From an uncultured virus (IMG/VR IMGVR_UViG_3300021420_000030) (lineage: Duplodnaviria; Heunggongvirae; Uroviricota; Caudoviricetes), in the IMG/VR virus record IMGVR_UViG_3300021420_000030: a stretch of 20,000 nucleotides of DNA; one strand, written 5' to 3'. Shown piece by piece: positions 1 through 20,000 of the stretch (its first letter is position 1; each line of letters begins with the position of its first letter). A program made the position numbers and the translations under genes. The notes below the pieces were generated by a model. The model was not told the DNA's origin. It saw only the letters and a list, made by a program, of their open reading frames with translations, and did not search any database.

Positions 1-439
1 CTGCGGCGGAGTCATTACGATCAAACTCCACATGCACTGCAAATCTCTTGGCATACCCAAGTACCTCCCGTTTCATTACCTCAAAACAAGAGAATTCCTG
101 ATCGCTCAAACCGAAAGAGCGAAGCAAAGAGTTGGCGAAAAGGCCCACAACTGGAGACACGGCAAAACCAAAAAGCAGGAAATATTGAGAAAGTCCAAGC
201 CATACATCGCTTGGCGCAATGCGGTATACCTGCGCGATGATTTTACCTGTCAAAAGTGTGGCGCACACAGCGGTCAAGGCAAAGCCGTATACCTTCACGC
301 GCACCATCACCCCGTTCCCTTCAAAATACTCTGGAAGGAATTTGTGAGTGGCAAGCGTACCAAGGAGAGTTTCTTCGATCCCTCGCTCGGCATTACGCTG
401 TGTCGTCCATGTCATAAACAGATGCACTCAGTTCACTGA
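1..439 (+). CDS. HNH endonuclease, 5'-truncated by the window edge, antisense to the capsid gene
   Basis: Motifs WRNAVYLRDDFTCQKCG...LHAHH...GITLCRPCHKQMH (Zn-binding HNH). The frame is open from position 2 (CGGVITIKLH...), so the true start lies upstream of the window. Stop is TGA at 437-439. Confidence 0.85.
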   Translation, partial: CGGVITIKLHMHCKSLGIPKYLPFHYLKTREFLIAQTERAKQRVGEKAHNWRHGKTKKQEILRKSKPYIAWRNAVYLRDDFTCQKCGAHSGQGKAVYLHAHHHPVPFKILWKEFVSGKRTKESFFDPSLGITLCRPCHKQMHSVH

Positions 440-5373: not shown

Positions 5374-7311
5374 CTACGATTCCTTGGTCACGAGACGGGG
5401 AGTAGACTGTCCTGAACTTTTTCTGCCTGTCGGCGAAACTTGCATTCCAAGTCCCATCTGTTGTTCGGCCAGCAGGCGTGCGGTAATCGTATCGGCTCCC
5501 GCTGGCGGGAGTCCCACGTTCCCGACCCCAAGCGTATCCATTAAAGTCCAGTGGTCGACCAGCCCAGCCCGCGAGAGCTGCAGCATCAACATCTTCTTCT
5601 GCATCTCGGAAGCCGCCAGTAACGACCCTGGAGCCACATGAAAGGAGAACTGCCGCAAAAACTCTTTCGAGCGATCCAGGCGCGGCAATGGCCCCCGGTC
5701 GAGGGCCTTTTGATTCACCGTACCATCATCGTTGAAATCTTCGGGATCGACGAAGTCCGGAACCAGGGACCCTGGATCGAAATCGAAATCTTCCTTCGTC
5801 ACGCCACTGGCTCCAAGAATCGTCATGCGGCGGGGAAGCGTATAGAACTGGGCGAAGTTATACGCCATCATCTGGGCATATTCGCGCATGAAGACCTCGA
5901 TGACGCGGGAGCGCATCCGCCAGGTTAACGACATTGCCTCCATCAGCTGTTCGACCGTATCCGGGGAGGGCATTTGTCCCATCTTCATCATGCTGGAGAG
6001 ATCCTGGGAGCCGGACAGTTCCTTAATCTTCGCTTCGTAATACTCGATGCCTTTCCAGAAATCGGCAGGCAGGGGGTCGGGGCCGACAAACTGGAGGCCG
6101 CTTTTTCCGGTCGTGGGATTGACCCGAATGCGTTTCCCGGCCCTTCGGGTATCGATCTTATTGATCCCATGCTCCGAGATCACCGTCTTATCGGCCCAGA
6201 CATCGGGCCGGGCCAATCGTTCACACCAATCGTCATAGACACGAAGGAGACGGTTGAGGGCTTTGTTTAAGGGGAGTAGATCCCAGAGGGGAGCCTTGCC
6301 GAGAAACGACCACGGCACCGGATCCAGTGTCAGCTTGGGATAGGGGTAGAGCCCGTGCCACCAGGGGGAGGGGCCGTCGTAGAAGGGCTCCGGAAGACCG
6401 GAGCAGAAGACGATCATGCGCTTCCGGGGATACAACCGGTCACCCGGAGCGACGGTATAGGACCAGTTGTTCTTCGGCTTTCCGTCTTTATCGAAGGCTC
6501 CCATGTGGACGTCTTTGGAGGATTCGTTCTCCGTCTGGTCATCGACGTAGACGGTGAAAAGATCCGCCATGGGAACGCGGGGGACATCGCGCTGGGAACT
6601 GTCGCCAAAGAGTCGTTGTTTAAACGGGGAATCCCCTAGCTTCTGGAGGAGAGCCCCGACGCGGGTGTTGCGGAGCGAAGCCCCGGAGGCGGTACCGTCG
6701 CGGTCGGCCTGGATGTATTTTAAAAGATCGGGGCGTTCATAGACGACCTTCGCCAGATACCGGAGATGGTTGACCGTGCGGGCTTTGCGGGTGATGACCC
6801 CGTAGCAGTCCTGAATCGATGGGGAAGGGGTGGGCCGGATCGGCAGGACATCGCGGGGATCCCAGGCTTCGGCACGGAAGTCTTCGATGGCGGTATCCCA
6901 GTATGGTTCCAGATAGGAGGTGCCGCAGGAGATGGCGTACTGGACACAATTGAAGAAGGACATATCCATCTGGCGGGTGATCCAGGTATGTTCGGACAAA
7001 TGTCCATAGATCGAGCACTGGTCTTCAAAGCGTTTGTTGTAGGTGCGGTATTCCCAGAAGGGCTTGATGTCGGTCATCCCCGAGGCCATGTCGAAGAAGG
7101 CCTTCGATGTCTGGTTGCATTCGGTACCGGAGAGGGCCGGGGAACGGAGGTCGGAAGAGGTCCCCATAATCGTTTGGACCGCTTCATCTATCTTCGCATA
7201 GCCCACCTGCGATCTCAGGAAATCGTCTGCCTCCTGAGCCGCTTCTTTCACCCATCCGATGACGCGGTACCCGTAGGCTTCTTGTGCGGGAGGTACCCGA
7301 TCCTCGGGCAC
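5374..7311 (-). CDS. Portal protein
   Basis: 645 aa between terminase and scaffold/capsid. Portal-like features: YAISCGTSYLEPYWD, WDPRDVLP, YPYPKL...PWSFLGKAPLWDLLPLNKALNRL, IKELSG. Confidence 0.85.
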   Translation of the reverse strand: MPEDRVPPAQEAYGYRVIGWVKEAAQEADDFLRSQVGYAKIDEAVQTIMGTSSDLRSPALSGTECNQTSKAFFDMASGMTDIKPFWEYRTYNKRFEDQCSIYGHLSEHTWITRQMDMSFFNCVQYAISCGTSYLEPYWDTAIEDFRAEAWDPRDVLPIRPTPSPSIQDCYGVITRKARTVNHLRYLAKVVYERPDLLKYIQADRDGTASGASLRNTRVGALLQKLGDSPFKQRLFGDSSQRDVPRVPMADLFTVYVDDQTENESSKDVHMGAFDKDGKPKNNWSYTVAPGDRLYPRKRMIVFCSGLPEPFYDGPSPWWHGLYPYPKLTLDPVPWSFLGKAPLWDLLPLNKALNRLLRVYDDWCERLARPDVWADKTVISEHGINKIDTRRAGKRIRVNPTTGKSGLQFVGPDPLPADFWKGIEYYEAKIKELSGSQDLSSMMKMGQMPSPDTVEQLMEAMSLTWRMRSRVIEVFMREYAQMMAYNFAQFYTLPRRMTILGASGVTKEDFDFDPGSLVPDFVDPEDFNDDGTVNQKALDRGPLPRLDRSKEFLRQFSFHVAPGSLLAASEMQKKMLMLQLSRAGLVDHWTLMDTLGVGNVGLPPAGADTITARLLAEQQMGLGMQVSPTGRKSSGQSTPRLVTKES

Positions 7312-8089: not shown

Positions 8090-8293
8090 TTAAAAATCCG
8101 GCAGACACTTTCCGTAAGGGACGCCGGTTTTCTTGTGCCTCGGCGAAACCCCGCCGGGTTGATCAGCGATAATCGGTTCCCGGCAGAAGAAGCAGACGCC
8201 GGTCTCCATGGTTGCCGGTAACGCCTTCGCCTTCTTACGCCGAGGCTTGGTCGATCCCTTCGCTGAGTTCGGACCATCTTGTCTCCCAGTCAT
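8090..8293 (-). CDS. Possible small Cys/His protein (start uncertain)
   Basis: Fills the gap after the terminase. CFFC...H...C could bind a metal. Confidence 0.3.
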   Translation of the reverse strand: MTGRQDGPNSAKGSTKPRRKKAKALPATMETGVCFFCREPIIADQPGGVSPRHKKTGVPYGKCLPDF

Positions 8294-9110
8294 CGATCAT
8301 CCTTTCCGAGGAAATATCTTGTTTTTGCCAGTCACTCACCGGCCCGCTACTCACATGCGAGACCACCGGATCAATGGCGAAGGACCAGTTGTGGGCGGCC
8401 CACAGGGCCAAGAGACATGCCGTGACCCGGTCATCGTGGCCACGGGCGGCAGCGCCCCGCAGGCGCACCAGATCCATTTCACAGTCAGCGAATTCCTCCA
8501 CCAGATGCGGGGACTTGAAGATCAGCTGCTTCCGGTGGATGTACCGGAGACCCTTGGTCCACAGATGCTGCATGGACTGCTTGGTCGAGTACCAGCCAAA
8601 GTCAAAGCGAGAACGTTCCGAGGTCATGCCGGTATCGAGATACTGCCAGCGGTACATATTCGTGTAGCCGTAAGATTCCATCATGGTGCGCTGGGTGGGG
8701 CCGCCGGGGCCCGGGTACACTTCTATAATGCAGAGGGCCTGCCCGTCTTCGTTGTTGCCGCCGTAGAGCCGTCCTAGCGCGTTTCCCACTTTGGCCAGAT
8801 CGTAGGGGTCGATGGGGGCGGCATACTCGGCCACCTGCATATCGGGCTTGAAGTGCGGGGAACCGGGTTCCCCTTGACCGACGCGGATGACTTCAATGGC
8901 TCCGTTATCGGTATCGGAGTCATCGCCAATACGATTGTACCTGTTCCAATTTGTGCGTCCCTGCGCAGCGTCAATACCGAGGATATACCTCGATCTTGGA
9001 TTCGGCGGCTCGTACAGCCAAACGATTCCGCGCGGGTCGCCATCGTAGCCGTCTGGCGCTTGAACCAACCGCTGGCGACCACCAATACGAAACTCTGATG
9101 GAGCAATCAT
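8235..9110 (-). CDS. terL: Terminase large subunit, C-terminal RNase H-like nuclease half
   Basis: GIVWLYEPP...YILGIDAAQG...DNGAIEVI...QVAEY...IIEV...HDDRVTA. Has its own ATG (ATGA overlap with the HNH stop) and a GGGAG RBS. Confidence 0.9.
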   Translation of the reverse strand: MIAPSEFRIGGRQRLVQAPDGYDGDPRGIVWLYEPPNPRSRYILGIDAAQGRTNWNRYNRIGDDSDTDNGAIEVIRVGQGEPGSPHFKPDMQVAEYAAPIDPYDLAKVGNALGRLYGGNNEDGQALCIIEVYPGPGGPTQRTMMESYGYTNMYRWQYLDTGMTSERSRFDFGWYSTKQSMQHLWTKGLRYIHRKQLIFKSPHLVEEFADCEMDLVRLRGAAARGHDDRVTACLLALWAAHNWSFAIDPVVSHVSSGPVSDWQKQDISSERMIDDWETRWSELSEGIDQASA

Positions 9111-9559
9111 TGAGCCCTGGTCTCCCTATACGCCTTACTGGCATAGTAACGATGACAAATCCGACAAACCCGCCATCCTCTTTTTTGAATAATCGTATTT
9201 TCTTTCGTATATTCGTGTCCCTGTGGGCAGTGAGTCTTCAATGTTTGACGGATATTGGCCAAGCCTCGCCGACAATTCTCACGGTTCGTTACAGGTTCCA
9301 TATGCCACGGGTTACAGCAGGCTCTCACCCGACATTTGTGATCGAGTTGCAAGCCTTCCGGAATTGTTCCAATTAGGACCGTATAAGAAATCCGGTGCGC
9401 AAGAAAAACGCTCCGATTAATGGTAATGACTCCATATCCTGCCTTAGTACGAGCAGACTTCCACATCCAACATTTAACAGAATCGGAATAGTCTTCGACT
9501 TTCGTCAGAAAATGCAGGAACTGAGAAAATGTCAGGTCGATATTTTTCATCTTCATCAC
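9107..9559 (-). CDS. HNH homing endonuclease between the terL halves
   Basis: CWMW...GYG...AHRISY...LDHKCRVRACCNPWHMEPVT..EN, plus a C-terminal KTHCPQGHEY...CRIC module. Confidence 0.92.
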   Translation of the reverse strand: MMKMKNIDLTFSQFLHFLTKVEDYSDSVKCWMWKSARTKAGYGVITINRSVFLAHRISYTVLIGTIPEGLQLDHKCRVRACCNPWHMEPVTNRENCRRGLANIRQTLKTHCPQGHEYTKENTIIQKRGWRVCRICHRYYASKAYRETRAQ

Positions 9560-10809
9560 AAACCCTCCAACTCGAACGCCACACCTTCAGTCGTGGTCGA
9601 TCTCATAAAGTCTAGGACAACGGGGCTGATCGCACTCTGGGTGGTGGCCTGGAAACTTTGCTCCGGGGTACAGGAGTAGTTGGACAAAAACAAGTTCAGA
9701 GCGTTGTTTTCAATCGCCTCAGAATAAGACGATTCCCACCAGTAGAGCTGTTCCCGCGAGAGCGTCACTTCCTTGCCGACAAACTCCTTACTGGTCTGAT
9801 GGACCTTCCACGCAGTTTGCAAAGTCGCTTCATTGGGGGCCCAGCCCTCCGGCGGGCGGCGGCGGTACTTCCGTGGCTCGGCATAGAATGGAATGAACAT
9901 ATAGTTCCAGCGCGGCATCTTCCCTTTCCGAACTTTCTCCGAAAAGGAATACCACCATCCACCGGGTCCGCTACGCCCCTGAGGTGTCGTTTCTTGCAGG
10001 GAAAAAGTGTAGGGATGCTGCGGTAACGTGGGAAAGAAGTCGAGTTCCAAGGAACGTCCGTAAGGCCACTGGCTCACCTCGGTATTGTGATTCACATCGA
10101 ACTGACGGCCGGTACCGATACCGGACTGCTGGCGGCCATGCTGATAGAGGATGCGGGAGCCATGCTCTTCGCCAAACTGGATATGCTCGGATTTTTTATT
10201 AAAGCCCACCTGTTCCTCACCCCAGCCGTGGGGCTTCAGGAAAAACGGAAGGTGGTCCAGGATCAGCCGGTCCCGGGTGTAGAGTTCACCGACCTTATCT
10301 TCATCGACACTGGCGGCCATGGCGCGGGTGTGGGGCCAGCCCACCAGACGATGCATGGTGACGGCCCGGCCAATGGCGGTGTGGCCCAACGCTCGTCCGC
10401 CCTTGTTGTCACAGATAAGGATACCGTCGCAGGGATAGCCTTTCTCGTAGTCCTCAATATTCTTCTCTTCGAGCTTAATAATCAGATTCATCAGAATCTG
10501 CTGCGATTCCCAAAACGTCTCGCTGAATTTGCCAATGCCACCACCGTCAACCCCGTCCCGCTCAATGGTCATGTAGCGAAGCGAATACCCGAAATCCTGT
10601 TGAAACAGGATCTGTTCATTGCGGATGAAATCGGCGTGTTCCTTATTCTGATACCGGCCGAAGGAATCGGTCAGCTTGCCTTGGGCGTGGAGTTTGGTTA
10701 AGTATTCGGTCGCGTCCCAGGACTCTTGAGGAGAATAACGGTGGAGACGGATTCTTAGTTCAGACTCTATCCTACCAAGCATTTTCTCCGTGACACGATC
10801 ACTGTACAC
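9556..10809 (-). CDS. terL: Terminase large subunit, N-terminal ATPase half
   Basis: Walker A-like KGGRALGHT, GTGRQFDVNHNTEV (Walker B region), coupling motif ETTPQG, FIPFY, and FLSNYSCTPEQSF. Ends at a TGA overlapping the HNH start. Confidence 0.9.
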   Translation of the reverse strand: MYSDRVTEKMLGRIESELRIRLHRYSPQESWDATEYLTKLHAQGKLTDSFGRYQNKEHADFIRNEQILFQQDFGYSLRYMTIERDGVDGGGIGKFSETFWESQQILMNLIIKLEEKNIEDYEKGYPCDGILICDNKGGRALGHTAIGRAVTMHRLVGWPHTRAMAASVDEDKVGELYTRDRLILDHLPFFLKPHGWGEEQVGFNKKSEHIQFGEEHGSRILYQHGRQQSGIGTGRQFDVNHNTEVSQWPYGRSLELDFFPTLPQHPYTFSLQETTPQGRSGPGGWWYSFSEKVRKGKMPRWNYMFIPFYAEPRKYRRRPPEGWAPNEATLQTAWKVHQTSKEFVGKEVTLSREQLYWWESSYSEAIENNALNLFLSNYSCTPEQSFQATTQSAISPVVLDFMRSTTTEGVAFELEGL

Positions 10810-11272
10810 GGGAAAGCCTTAGCCGTTTTTTCTTTAAACGCTGACGCTCAAGATGACAGGCACGACATACTCTTCCAGACTCATACCTATACGTATTTTG
10901 CGGGGTATATTCATGCCCATGAGGACAATGTGTCTTCGCTCTCTGGAGATTTGCGGATTCACCTCGCCGGACATTCTCCCCAATTGTTACCGGCTCAAGA
11001 TGAAATGGATTCACGCACGCACGGTTACGGCAAAGATGATCAAGTTGTAATCCTTCCGGAATCTGACCAATCAAAACAGTATATGAAATGCGGTGCGCAA
11101 GCATCCCCATGAATACTCCGTAACCTGAACTAAGGGCTGCTTTCCATATCCAACACTTACTGGAATCGGAGTGGTCTCCGACTTTTGTCAAGAAATGTAA
11201 AAACTCAGAAAATGTAAGGTTAATGACTGGTTTCTTTTTCTCTTGGATGTGATATGTCCCGATTTGTTTCAC
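10799..11272 (-). CDS. Free-standing HNH homing endonuclease upstream of terL
   Basis: CWIW...GYG...AHRISY...LDHLCRNRACVNPFHLEPVT..EN...KTHCPHGHEY...CRAC. Close paralog of 9107..9559. Confidence 0.92.
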   Translation of the reverse strand: MKQIGTYHIQEKKKPVINLTFSEFLHFLTKVGDHSDSSKCWIWKAALSSGYGVFMGMLAHRISYTVLIGQIPEGLQLDHLCRNRACVNPFHLEPVTIGENVRRGESANLQRAKTHCPHGHEYTPQNTYRYESGRVCRACHLERQRLKKKRLRLSRVQ

Positions 11273-12359: not shown

Positions 12360-12585
12360 GTTTCCTCCGGTATTCTTCTTCGCGGGAGACATGCATCATG
12401 CGGGTGCGGAGTTCTTCCTGTTTCGCGTGTAACGTCACCTGACGGCTGATGCCCGGCTTACGGCCTCCCTTACGGCCGTTGATGCGGGAGGCAGCGGCTT
12501 TCTTCTCCGAGCGGGAGGAGCCCAGACACACACTGCAGGTCACAATCATCTTGGCCTGAGGATGCAGGTCACACCTTATCTTCAT
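12340..12585 (-). CDS. Small basic Zn-binding / DNA-binding-like protein
   Basis: CDLH...CSVC followed by SEKKAAASRINGRKGGRKP. Confidence 0.6.
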   Translation of the reverse strand: MKIRCDLHPQAKMIVTCSVCLGSSRSEKKAAASRINGRKGGRKPGISRQVTLHAKQEELRTRMMHVSREEEYRRKHGIRQD

Positions 12586-13195
12586 GACCAGATCCTACCG
12601 CATTGGGTCTTGATGGTTCAAGGGAAATCTCGCGCGTCTTTTTAAGAATGGTCTCCATTCGTTGGTCCGTATTACCGAAGTTCTGGGTCACGGCCACAAG
12701 GGGGCCGGACTGCTTGATGAGCTTGGCGGACTCGAAGACCAGGTCTCGCGCTTGCTTATCTCCAACGCGTCTTACCGTCCCCGTAGATTTACACGTCGGA
12801 CAGTCCCGGGTTTCATCCTTATAAGGAACGAAACCGAACCCATCGCATCTCGCACAGTTCTCCATATGGGTTTTCGCATCTTCGGTGACATCGGCCATTA
12901 ACGAAGGAAGCGAATTGGACATCTGGAGAAGGGCCAGCTGGCGCATGCCATCGGCATAGAGCAGCTGCATCTCATGGAGGGTGACTCCGGCCTTCTTACA
13001 TTGCCAGGCGAAACTCATCTTCGCGTAGGCGGGATCCTGCATGATCAGCATCAGGGTATCGAAACGCTCATTGCCGGAATTCTCCAGAAACTGAGACATG
13101 GCGTCTTTGTCGATATGCTGCGCGAAGCGTTTCATCGGGAGATCCTTGTCCGGATCGGTTTCCCGTAGACGGCGGTGTTTATCGTTCTTCATCAT
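12569..13195 (-). CDS. Probable terminase small subunit with inserted DnaJ-type Zn finger
   Basis: HTH-like SFAWQCKKAGVTLHEMQLLY, then a helix, CARCDGFG...CPTCKSTG, the helix GDKQARDLVFE and a beta tail VAVTQNF. Lies upstream of terL. Confidence 0.5.
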   Translation of the reverse strand: MMKNDKHRRLRETDPDKDLPMKRFAQHIDKDAMSQFLENSGNERFDTLMLIMQDPAYAKMSFAWQCKKAGVTLHEMQLLYADGMRQLALLQMSNSLPSLMADVTEDAKTHMENCARCDGFGFVPYKDETRDCPTCKSTGTVRRVGDKQARDLVFESAKLIKQSGPLVAVTQNFGNTDQRMETILKKTREISLEPSRPNAVGSGHEDKV

Positions 13196-19836: not shown

Positions 19837-19970
19837 TTGTGAGTCGCGGGGTATTACCCGACTTCATCGAGGCATTCTCCGGGTACGGGTCCGGGTCCGG
19901 GTACGGGTACGGGTACGGGTACGGGTACGGGGACGGGTACGGGTCCGGGGACGGGTGGGGGTGCGGGTAG
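19833..19970 (+). CDS. Gly-X (GY/GD/GS) repeat protein
   Basis: GTGA overlap start (alternative ATG at 19818). SGYGSGSGYGYGYGYGYGDGYGSGDGWGCG. Confidence 0.55.
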   Translation: MIVSRGVLPDFIEAFSGYGSGSGYGYGYGYGYGDGYGSGDGWGCG

Positions 19971-20000
19971 GGGGACCGGGACGGGGACGGGTAAGGGGAC
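19881..20000 (+). repeat. GGGTAC/GGGGAC hexamer tandem repeat
   Basis: The hexamer array runs to the window end and continues past the TAG. Confidence 0.9.

Follow-up and report, generated by a model that had tools for sequence, protein, structure and literature searches.

The locus described here raises the question of whether a phage DNA-packaging motor can be built with its ATPase and its nuclease on two protein chains, and whether the HNH endonuclease gene lying between the two terminase genes is what parted them, as a preliminary description of this DNA had claimed. The window, i.e. the whole stretch of 20,000 nucleotides from an uncultured virus, a soil phage (IMG/VR record IMGVR_UViG_3300021420_000030), that was analysed, carries the following features:

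10809-9556, minus strand: large terminase ATPase chain, 417 aa, with the domain complete up to about residue 390 (from profile and AlphaFold model)
9556..9639, minus strand: C-terminal tail of the ATPase chain, residues 391-417, by comparison the start of the nuclease fold
9559-9107, minus strand: HNH-B, putative free-standing HNH endonuclease, 150 aa (PF13392, phrog_826), overlapping both neighbours
9110-8235, minus strand: large terminase nuclease chain, 291 aa, with D47, E130, D226 and D227 invariant
9122..9126, minus strand: GGGAG, Shine-Dalgarno-like (consensus match only), within the coding end of HNH-B
10799..11272, minus strand: HNH-A, second HNH endonuclease, directly upstream of the ATPase gene and overlapping its start
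12569..13195, minus strand: candidate small terminase, 208 aa, with a zinc-finger-like segment (a lead only)
5374..7311, minus strand: portal protein, 76% identical to the portal of relative L008; packaging module intact
1204-428, minus strand: major head gene, downstream of the terminase genes

The three central ORFs lie where the preliminary description had placed them, joined by four-base overlaps on the minus strand: the ATPase stop and the HNH-B start share GTGA, and the HNH-B stop and the nuclease start share ATGA. An alternative HNH-B start, an ATG one codon further on, would give a TGATG overlap and a better spacing from an upstream GGAGG. The nuclease gene has, as previously noticed, a putative ribosome-binding site of its own, a GGGAG 11 nt 5' of its ATG that is a match to the consensus only. 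The ATPase and nuclease domains are on separate polypeptides, with a stop codon at 9556-9558 and with reading frames that differ and lie 445 nt apart. The order of the portal gene, the candidate small terminase gene and several neighbours is conserved with L008; the candidate matches small terminase clusters at 0.85, below the 0.9 threshold, and has a homologue in 66 of the 113 locus clusters described below. Judged by these annotations, the packaging module appears to hold the portal, with the small terminase as a candidate, and a second terminase may lie elsewhere in the genome, beyond the window. Promoter and terminator scans performed no better than chance.

Neither the ATPase ORF nor the nuclease ORF has a match in Pfam or PHROGs. 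The ATPase profile matches T4 gp17 with E 5e-5, in an alignment over gp17 residues 157-303 that spans what we take, following the T4 names, to be the Walker A, Walker B and coupling motifs. The AlphaFold model of the ATPase chain (pLDDT 94) has as its best match the T4 gp17 ATPase 2o0j (Foldseek E 2e-10), with a VIA Z of 21.8 and an rmsd of 3.4 for 272 aligned residues. All 132 ATPase sequences compared have K136, R139, E244 and E273, and all 116 aligned nuclease sequences have the four acidic residues listed above for the nuclease chain. The nuclease profile reaches RB49 gp17 with an E of 0.45 only; P0059, a relative in the fused state, shares 50% identity with each of the window halves, and its model superposes on the RB49 nuclease 3c6a (Z 22.2, rmsd 2.2) over 189 of the 198 RB49 nuclease residues. 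As modelled on P0059, not on the window chain, the window nuclease would be RNase H-like with an acidic active site. Comparison with relative L001 gives dN/dS of 0.26/3.06 for the ATPase and 0.24/1.34 for the nuclease, while silent sites are saturated against relative L088. These values and the invariant positions show purifying selection on both halves with retention of the catalytic residues, in keeping with the earlier view that both are maintained, and the large terminase is encoded as two functional-looking genes.

Loci were drawn from IMG/VR, metagenomes and GTDB genomes, with the addition of phage Tunturi 1, and were classified by profile; the locus alignment scans used the best 80 of 160 and the best 80 of 252 matches, and the sample is biased to close relatives. 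The 171 stretches (170 loci and the window) comprised 137 split, 11 fused and 23 uninformative cases, the last due in nearly all instances to contig ends. After clustering at 95%, the 113 locus clusters consisted of 92 split, 6 fused and 15 uninformative ones: 92 of the 98 informative clusters are split at the same point, two of the split calls (L006 and L015) being possible frameshift errors in fused genes. Among the matches listed, 116 of 119 ATPase homologues stand alone with the same end point, 2 are fused and 1 is partial; the length limit of this search, 730 aa, left room for fused forms, which measure about 700 aa. Among the nuclease matches listed (proteins up to 510 aa), all 119 are without an ATPase part. 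The best 150 representatives of 50% clusters included 78 fused, 57 alone, 8 long-tailed and 7 partial proteins. A two-gene terminase is therefore a state inherited in a large phage family.

The two halves are adjacent in 43 of the 92 split clusters and are separated by 60-300 nt in 22, by 300-1000 nt in 19 and by more than 1000 nt in 8. The cargo ranges in size from 0 to 3.5 kb, the largest being a 3.5-kb block, and includes DNA methylases, an M15 peptidase, HTH and radical SAM proteins, and proteins of 500-980 aa. A possible start codon at −4 or −1 overlaps the ATPase stop in 71 of the 92, and Shine-Dalgarno motifs are weak or absent at 26 of 42 adjacent junctions. The family consists mostly of uncultured phages, with many contigs of 58-68 kb; a viral scan with the nuclease alone gave no new locus, and a tblastn search of cultured phages with the ATPase gave no match. 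Three genome matches fall in Binatia, Acidobacteria and Pseudonocardiaceae bins.

To trace the history of the junction, a tree was built from the ATPase domains of 229 split and 89 fused proteins, 318 in all, with the 8 long-tailed rows and the partial and short ones omitted. Its root was placed on four one-chain terminases, cultured or annotated, and the P proteins were labelled by their length and profile rather than by DNA context. This tree requires a minimum of 22 state changes, compared with no fewer than 69 in 200 label shuffles; recombination between phages may have raised the former count in part. Every outgroup is fused, as is the whole Tunturi clade (30 rows), and thus the split state is derived; the window falls within an all-split clade (58 of 58 proteins), and the fused proteins P0059, P0263, P0266, P0247 and P0270 adjoin split sisters. 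In a 53-row subset, chosen after the first tree was seen, the AU test rejects monophyly both of the fused proteins (p 2e-59) and of the loci that carry an HNH (p 1e-64). The nesting of fused forms in split clades, together with the AU rejection, indicates that the state of the junction changed on many occasions.

The ATPase domain ends about 27 residues before the cut: the end of the T4 ATPase construct (residue 360) corresponds to window residue 390, and the crystal nuclease domains align to P0059 from residue 373-376, equivalent to window 388-391. Since the nuclease fold starts at 388-391 but the ATPase chain reaches 417, this chain holds the first helix and strand of that fold. Its tail has a helix at 396-405 and then a terminal segment, which is coil in the model of the lone ATPase chain and has as its counterpart a strand (395-401) in the fused P0059 model; after this strand P0059 has, at the cut site, a disordered loop of 24 residues (409-432, pLDDT <50). 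The preliminary description had counted 31 residues after EQSF in the ATPase and 30 before WLYE in the nuclease, and had seen in them a complete interdomain linker; the counts are right, but more than a linker is involved, for the tail of the ATPase matches the opening helix and strand of the nuclease fold. The span across the junction is 82 residues in the window versus 70-110 in the measured fused relatives, and the termini of the window halves align with those of HNH-free relatives.

Covariation between the chains was calculated from 81 split pairs. The top pair, I394-F207, has a z of 8.0, to be compared with maxima of 7.5 in 40 random shuffles and 7.8 in 30 neighbour swaps; the top ten include A411-W31, R403-G78, I394-L233 and V410-Y58, and 5 of the ten use the 27 tail columns out of a total of 395. 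The number of tail pairs averages 1.05 in the random shuffles, of which 0 of 40 reach 5, and 2.8 in the neighbour swaps, of which 3 of 30 reach 5. Covariation of R279-D209 is high in the split set and, separately, in the fused set; tail pairs are outside the top 15 of both the fused and the pooled sets. Covariation of the tail with the nuclease thus suggests, with modest support, a heterodimer formed by fold completion.

We consider it probable that, as a whole, the locus is explained by a working two-gene terminase whose chains are joined by docking of the tail, with HNH-B as a passenger, and the packaging motor most likely works as two protein chains. Both chains would be made from one late message by translational coupling. 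The terminal helix and strand of the ATPase chain would then dock into the nuclease chain and complete its fold, a step that we favour, with some reserve, from the alignments and models. We propose that this docking is what brings the two chains together, the ATPase chain supplying at its end the opening helix and strand of the fold; the outcome would be the usual two-domain subunit, rebuilt non-covalently. The gap between the halves would act as a neutral landing site for accessory genes; HNH-B would be one of at least six endonucleases that entered it in separate lineages, and is probably a selfish homing element whose overlaps would keep the downstream nuclease translated.

According to PMC5389665, the isolated nuclease domains of T4 and Sf6 cut DNA, whereas that of P74-26 neither binds nor cleaves it. 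The inactivity of the P74-26 domain means that an untethered nuclease is not trivially functional; given the different behaviour of the T4 and Sf6 domains, some tether is expected but not certain. It is conceivable, although in our judgement improbable, that the two chains form no stable complex, the ATPase ring translocating alone and the nuclease being recruited transiently via DNA, the small terminase or the ring. Against such recruitment, the tail helix and the terminal aromatic (position 412 is Y or F in 69 of 82 split members) are kept and match parts of the nuclease fold, and the top covariation pairs involve the ATPase tail.

With respect to the origin of the split, HNH-B matches PF13392 (HNH_3) with E 1e-9 and phrog_826 with E 2e-49, and its PF13392 motif and patchy presence beside a conserved gene suggest the free-standing type of HNH homing endonuclease. 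HNH-A, overlooked in the preliminary description, is a paralogue with 65% identity over 130 aa and is absent from the closest relative (L001/L008). That an intact terminase gene was interrupted by insertion of the HNH gene, in the way mobE interrupted nrdA in phage Aeh1, is suggested by the way in which HNH-B fills the gap exactly and overlaps both halves, and by the recurrence of HNH genes in this slot in 6 of 92 split clusters (the window, L010, L024, L058 and L137 by tblastn, and L051 by Pfam, which was applied to 36 ORFs of junction cargo only); a cut made by an ancient endonuclease is also possible. Nonetheless, the HNH-free relatives, with which an alignment had been proposed, prove for the most part to be already split: no HNH was detected between the halves in 86 of the 92 split clusters. 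Among the closest of them, L001 (68%) and L088 (67%) have ORFs of 64 and 61 aa, respectively, and no HNH between the halves, and in L089 (61%) and L093 (51%) the halves are adjacent, which refutes HNH-B as maker of the split. Furthermore, HNH-bearing loci are not one clade, so that HNH genes entered the junction independently, and HNH-B is nearer to HNH-A than to the other junction HNHs (34-40%). We therefore regard breakage by HNH insertion as very unlikely; to judge from these comparisons, HNH-B is a later passenger and not the cause of the split.

The case of Aeh1 is instructive in this regard. Its nrdA-a/nrdA-b genes and mobE resemble the window in that an essential gene is in two pieces around a free-standing endonuclease, without splicing, and, according to PMC3045599, insertion of mobE parted the gene and gave the pieces new tails that are required for activity. 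In the window family the split is older than the HNH and the junction gained no sequence: where an Aeh1-type history would have fused endonuclease-free relatives, 6 of 98 clusters are fused, and where it would have new tails on both pieces, the junction span given above is that of the fused relatives. Since no foreign tails were gained, the precedent that the preliminary description had drawn from Aeh1 is unsupported as a mechanism.

Restoration of a single chain by RNA splicing, bypassing, frameshifting or stop readthrough also appears highly improbable. The nuclease is in the −1 frame at 34 of the 42 adjacent junctions in which a start was found, such that a −1 shift could join the halves, and bypassing has been proposed for the terminase of Streptomyces phage Hau3 (PMC10732093). 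However, the prevalence of the −1 frame is explained by the −4 and −1 overlaps of stop and start that are frequent at adjacent junctions (31 of 43), every stop codon and every frame is represented among the junctions, the cargo is unrelated between loci and can be as long as 3.5 kb, and the window nuclease is both distant from the ATPase and out of frame with it. No Rfam intron family was matched at E up to 1, a search in which divergent cores can be missed, and there are no non-coding bases; an intein was rejected, as stops end both the ATPase and HNH-B. Neither an intron nor an intein was detected, as the preliminary description had argued from the sequence, and its view that the two chains are separately translated is supported.

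An HNH protein, gp74, is a packaging cofactor in phage HK97. That HNH-B has a similar role and is kept between the halves for its function is scarcely credible to us: two HNH genes do flank the ATPase gene, with coupling to the terminase genes, and they have an apparently intact catalytic motif and a mostly silent divergence from each other (pN 0.22, pS 0.78), but a search of the entire flanks detected the family, of the PF13392/phrog_826 type, in no more than 9 of the 113 locus clusters, and the closest relative lacks it. An assembly error or a decaying prophage, both of which the preliminary description had weighed against its own reading, has a negligible chance of being the explanation and is refuted by the family data, i.e. 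the recurrence of this cut in 91 further clusters, purifying selection acting on the halves, and conserved neighbours and portal, even though the sole DNA run with the whole stretch may be its source. In this run (X1) one contig of 64,328 nt covers the region without difference and, being maybe the source of the window, is not independent; a 262-nt contig from an RNA library (run X2, a separate study) matches positions 8847-9108 without difference, and attests to presence only.

The two-gene terminase can be compared with several known systems. The one-chain terminases of the T4 gp17 type (3cpe and 2o0j; RB49, 3c6a; G20c, 5m1o) share with the window the ATPase and RNase H-like folds and the order of the motifs; they differ in that the window has two genes, cut beyond the ATPase domain, and in that the position of the T4 P-loop lysine is H or A in the window family, with a conserved lysine (K136) upstream. 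Among cultured phages, Tunturi 1 and 2 of Tunturiibacter (PP887698, PP885685) are the nearest relatives, with 24% identity over 664 residues of the fused P0059. Described as podoviruses of Acidobacteriota in PMC11924767, they are 63-kb podoviruses with a related portal; unlike the window, they have a terminase of one chain of 723 aa that falls outside the split-rich clade.

Separate genes for the ATPase and nuclease domains are annotated in Arthrobacter phages, namely those of cluster AY (Auxilium, MH834598; BlueShadow) and KellEzio (KU647626), whose hosts differ from those of the window family. The two ORFs are adjacent in Auxilium and five genes apart in KellEzio, which we take to belong to cluster AT. 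A two-ORF terminase is characteristic of most AY phages, according to PMC12820723. Comparison of these terminases with the window-family profiles detected no similarity, and theirs is therefore probably an independent split. Two-gene terminases being already annotated in cultured phages, the surprise is limited; the novelty lies in the family itself, in its repeated changes from one state to the other at a single loop, and in an interface that can be tested. In the literature searched, subscription papers and supplements aside, we found no mechanistic study of a two-chain terminase and no account of how the chains assemble or of repeated re-fusion.

A broader reading, which we put forward tentatively, is that motor and nuclease can do without their covalent link, which has been repeatedly lost and regained at one loop, with the helix and strand of the ATPase completing the nuclease fold, so that the nuclease would be an exchangeable subunit. 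If this were true, the nuclease could be sub-stoichiometric or leave the ring during translocation, and these phages would offer a natural test of whether DNA pumping mechanically requires the nuclease domain or whether this domain serves cutting alone. In the T4 model the nuclease domain, pulled via the covalent linker, helps to move the DNA. In an alternative model, given in PMC5389665, it is merely parked while the ATPase grips the DNA. Fused and split sister phages would constitute matched natural pairs for comparing motor models, and a specific interface is predicted. As neither half is recognised by Pfam or PHROGs, such phages would look terminase-less or broken in surveys, and the junction gap would be a hotspot for accessory genes. 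In Campylobacter phage F379 an endonuclease lies between two terminase ORFs, but the cut is near the N-terminus, with a first piece of 167 aa, and the arrangement is a different one.

A second HNH endonuclease gene flanks the ATPase gene on the side opposite the junction HNH. The features of the window considered here are as follows:

10799-11272, minus strand: second HNH gene, whose product shares 65% identity with the junction HNH
10378-10410, minus strand: deviant Walker A, ATPase residues 134-144
12569-13195, minus strand: conserved gene of 208 aa whose product has a DnaJ-like zinc finger
32-439, plus strand: 135-aa ORF with an HNH-like motif, recognized by eye
19880-20000, plus strand: Gly-Tyr/Gly-Ser repeat-coding stretch at the end of the window

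Silent sites are saturated in the pairwise comparison of the two HNH genes; at this level of identity they are related, and thus related endonucleases lie on both sides of the ATPase gene. The closest relative carries neither.

In the ATPase, the position of the T4 Walker A lysine is occupied by H or A; K136, upstream of it, is invariant among the aligned homologues, and residue 140 is A in the window as opposed to Q in at least 90% of them. In several relatives (proteins P0088, P0111, P0120; loci L012, L021) the stand-alone ATPase has an intein-like insertion in its Walker A region; that of P0120 is PF14890 in the precomputed annotation, and a larger one may be present in L155.

In some relatives the terminase halves are separated by very large proteins of 517-981 aa (L113:1245-2798, L157:702-3461, L025:4681-7626), one with DUF7178, whose genes are coupled to the ATPase and nuclease genes; at L163 two probable virion genes lie between the halves. 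The large terminase of Campylobacter phage F379, annotated as two ORFs around an endonuclease gene (L171:2398-5744), is cut close to the N-terminus. By eye, its ends at the cut resemble split-intein junctions.

One 262-nt metatranscriptome contig from another study matches the 5' part of the nuclease gene (8847-9108) with 0 differences and ends inside the start codon, an end that gives no indication of transcript start. Of the 113 locus clusters, 66 carry the zinc-finger gene upstream of their terminase genes, and it is a candidate small terminase. The 135-aa ORF, which has no Pfam match, overlaps the terminal part of the major head ORF, encoded on the other strand, and may interrupt or follow the major head gene.
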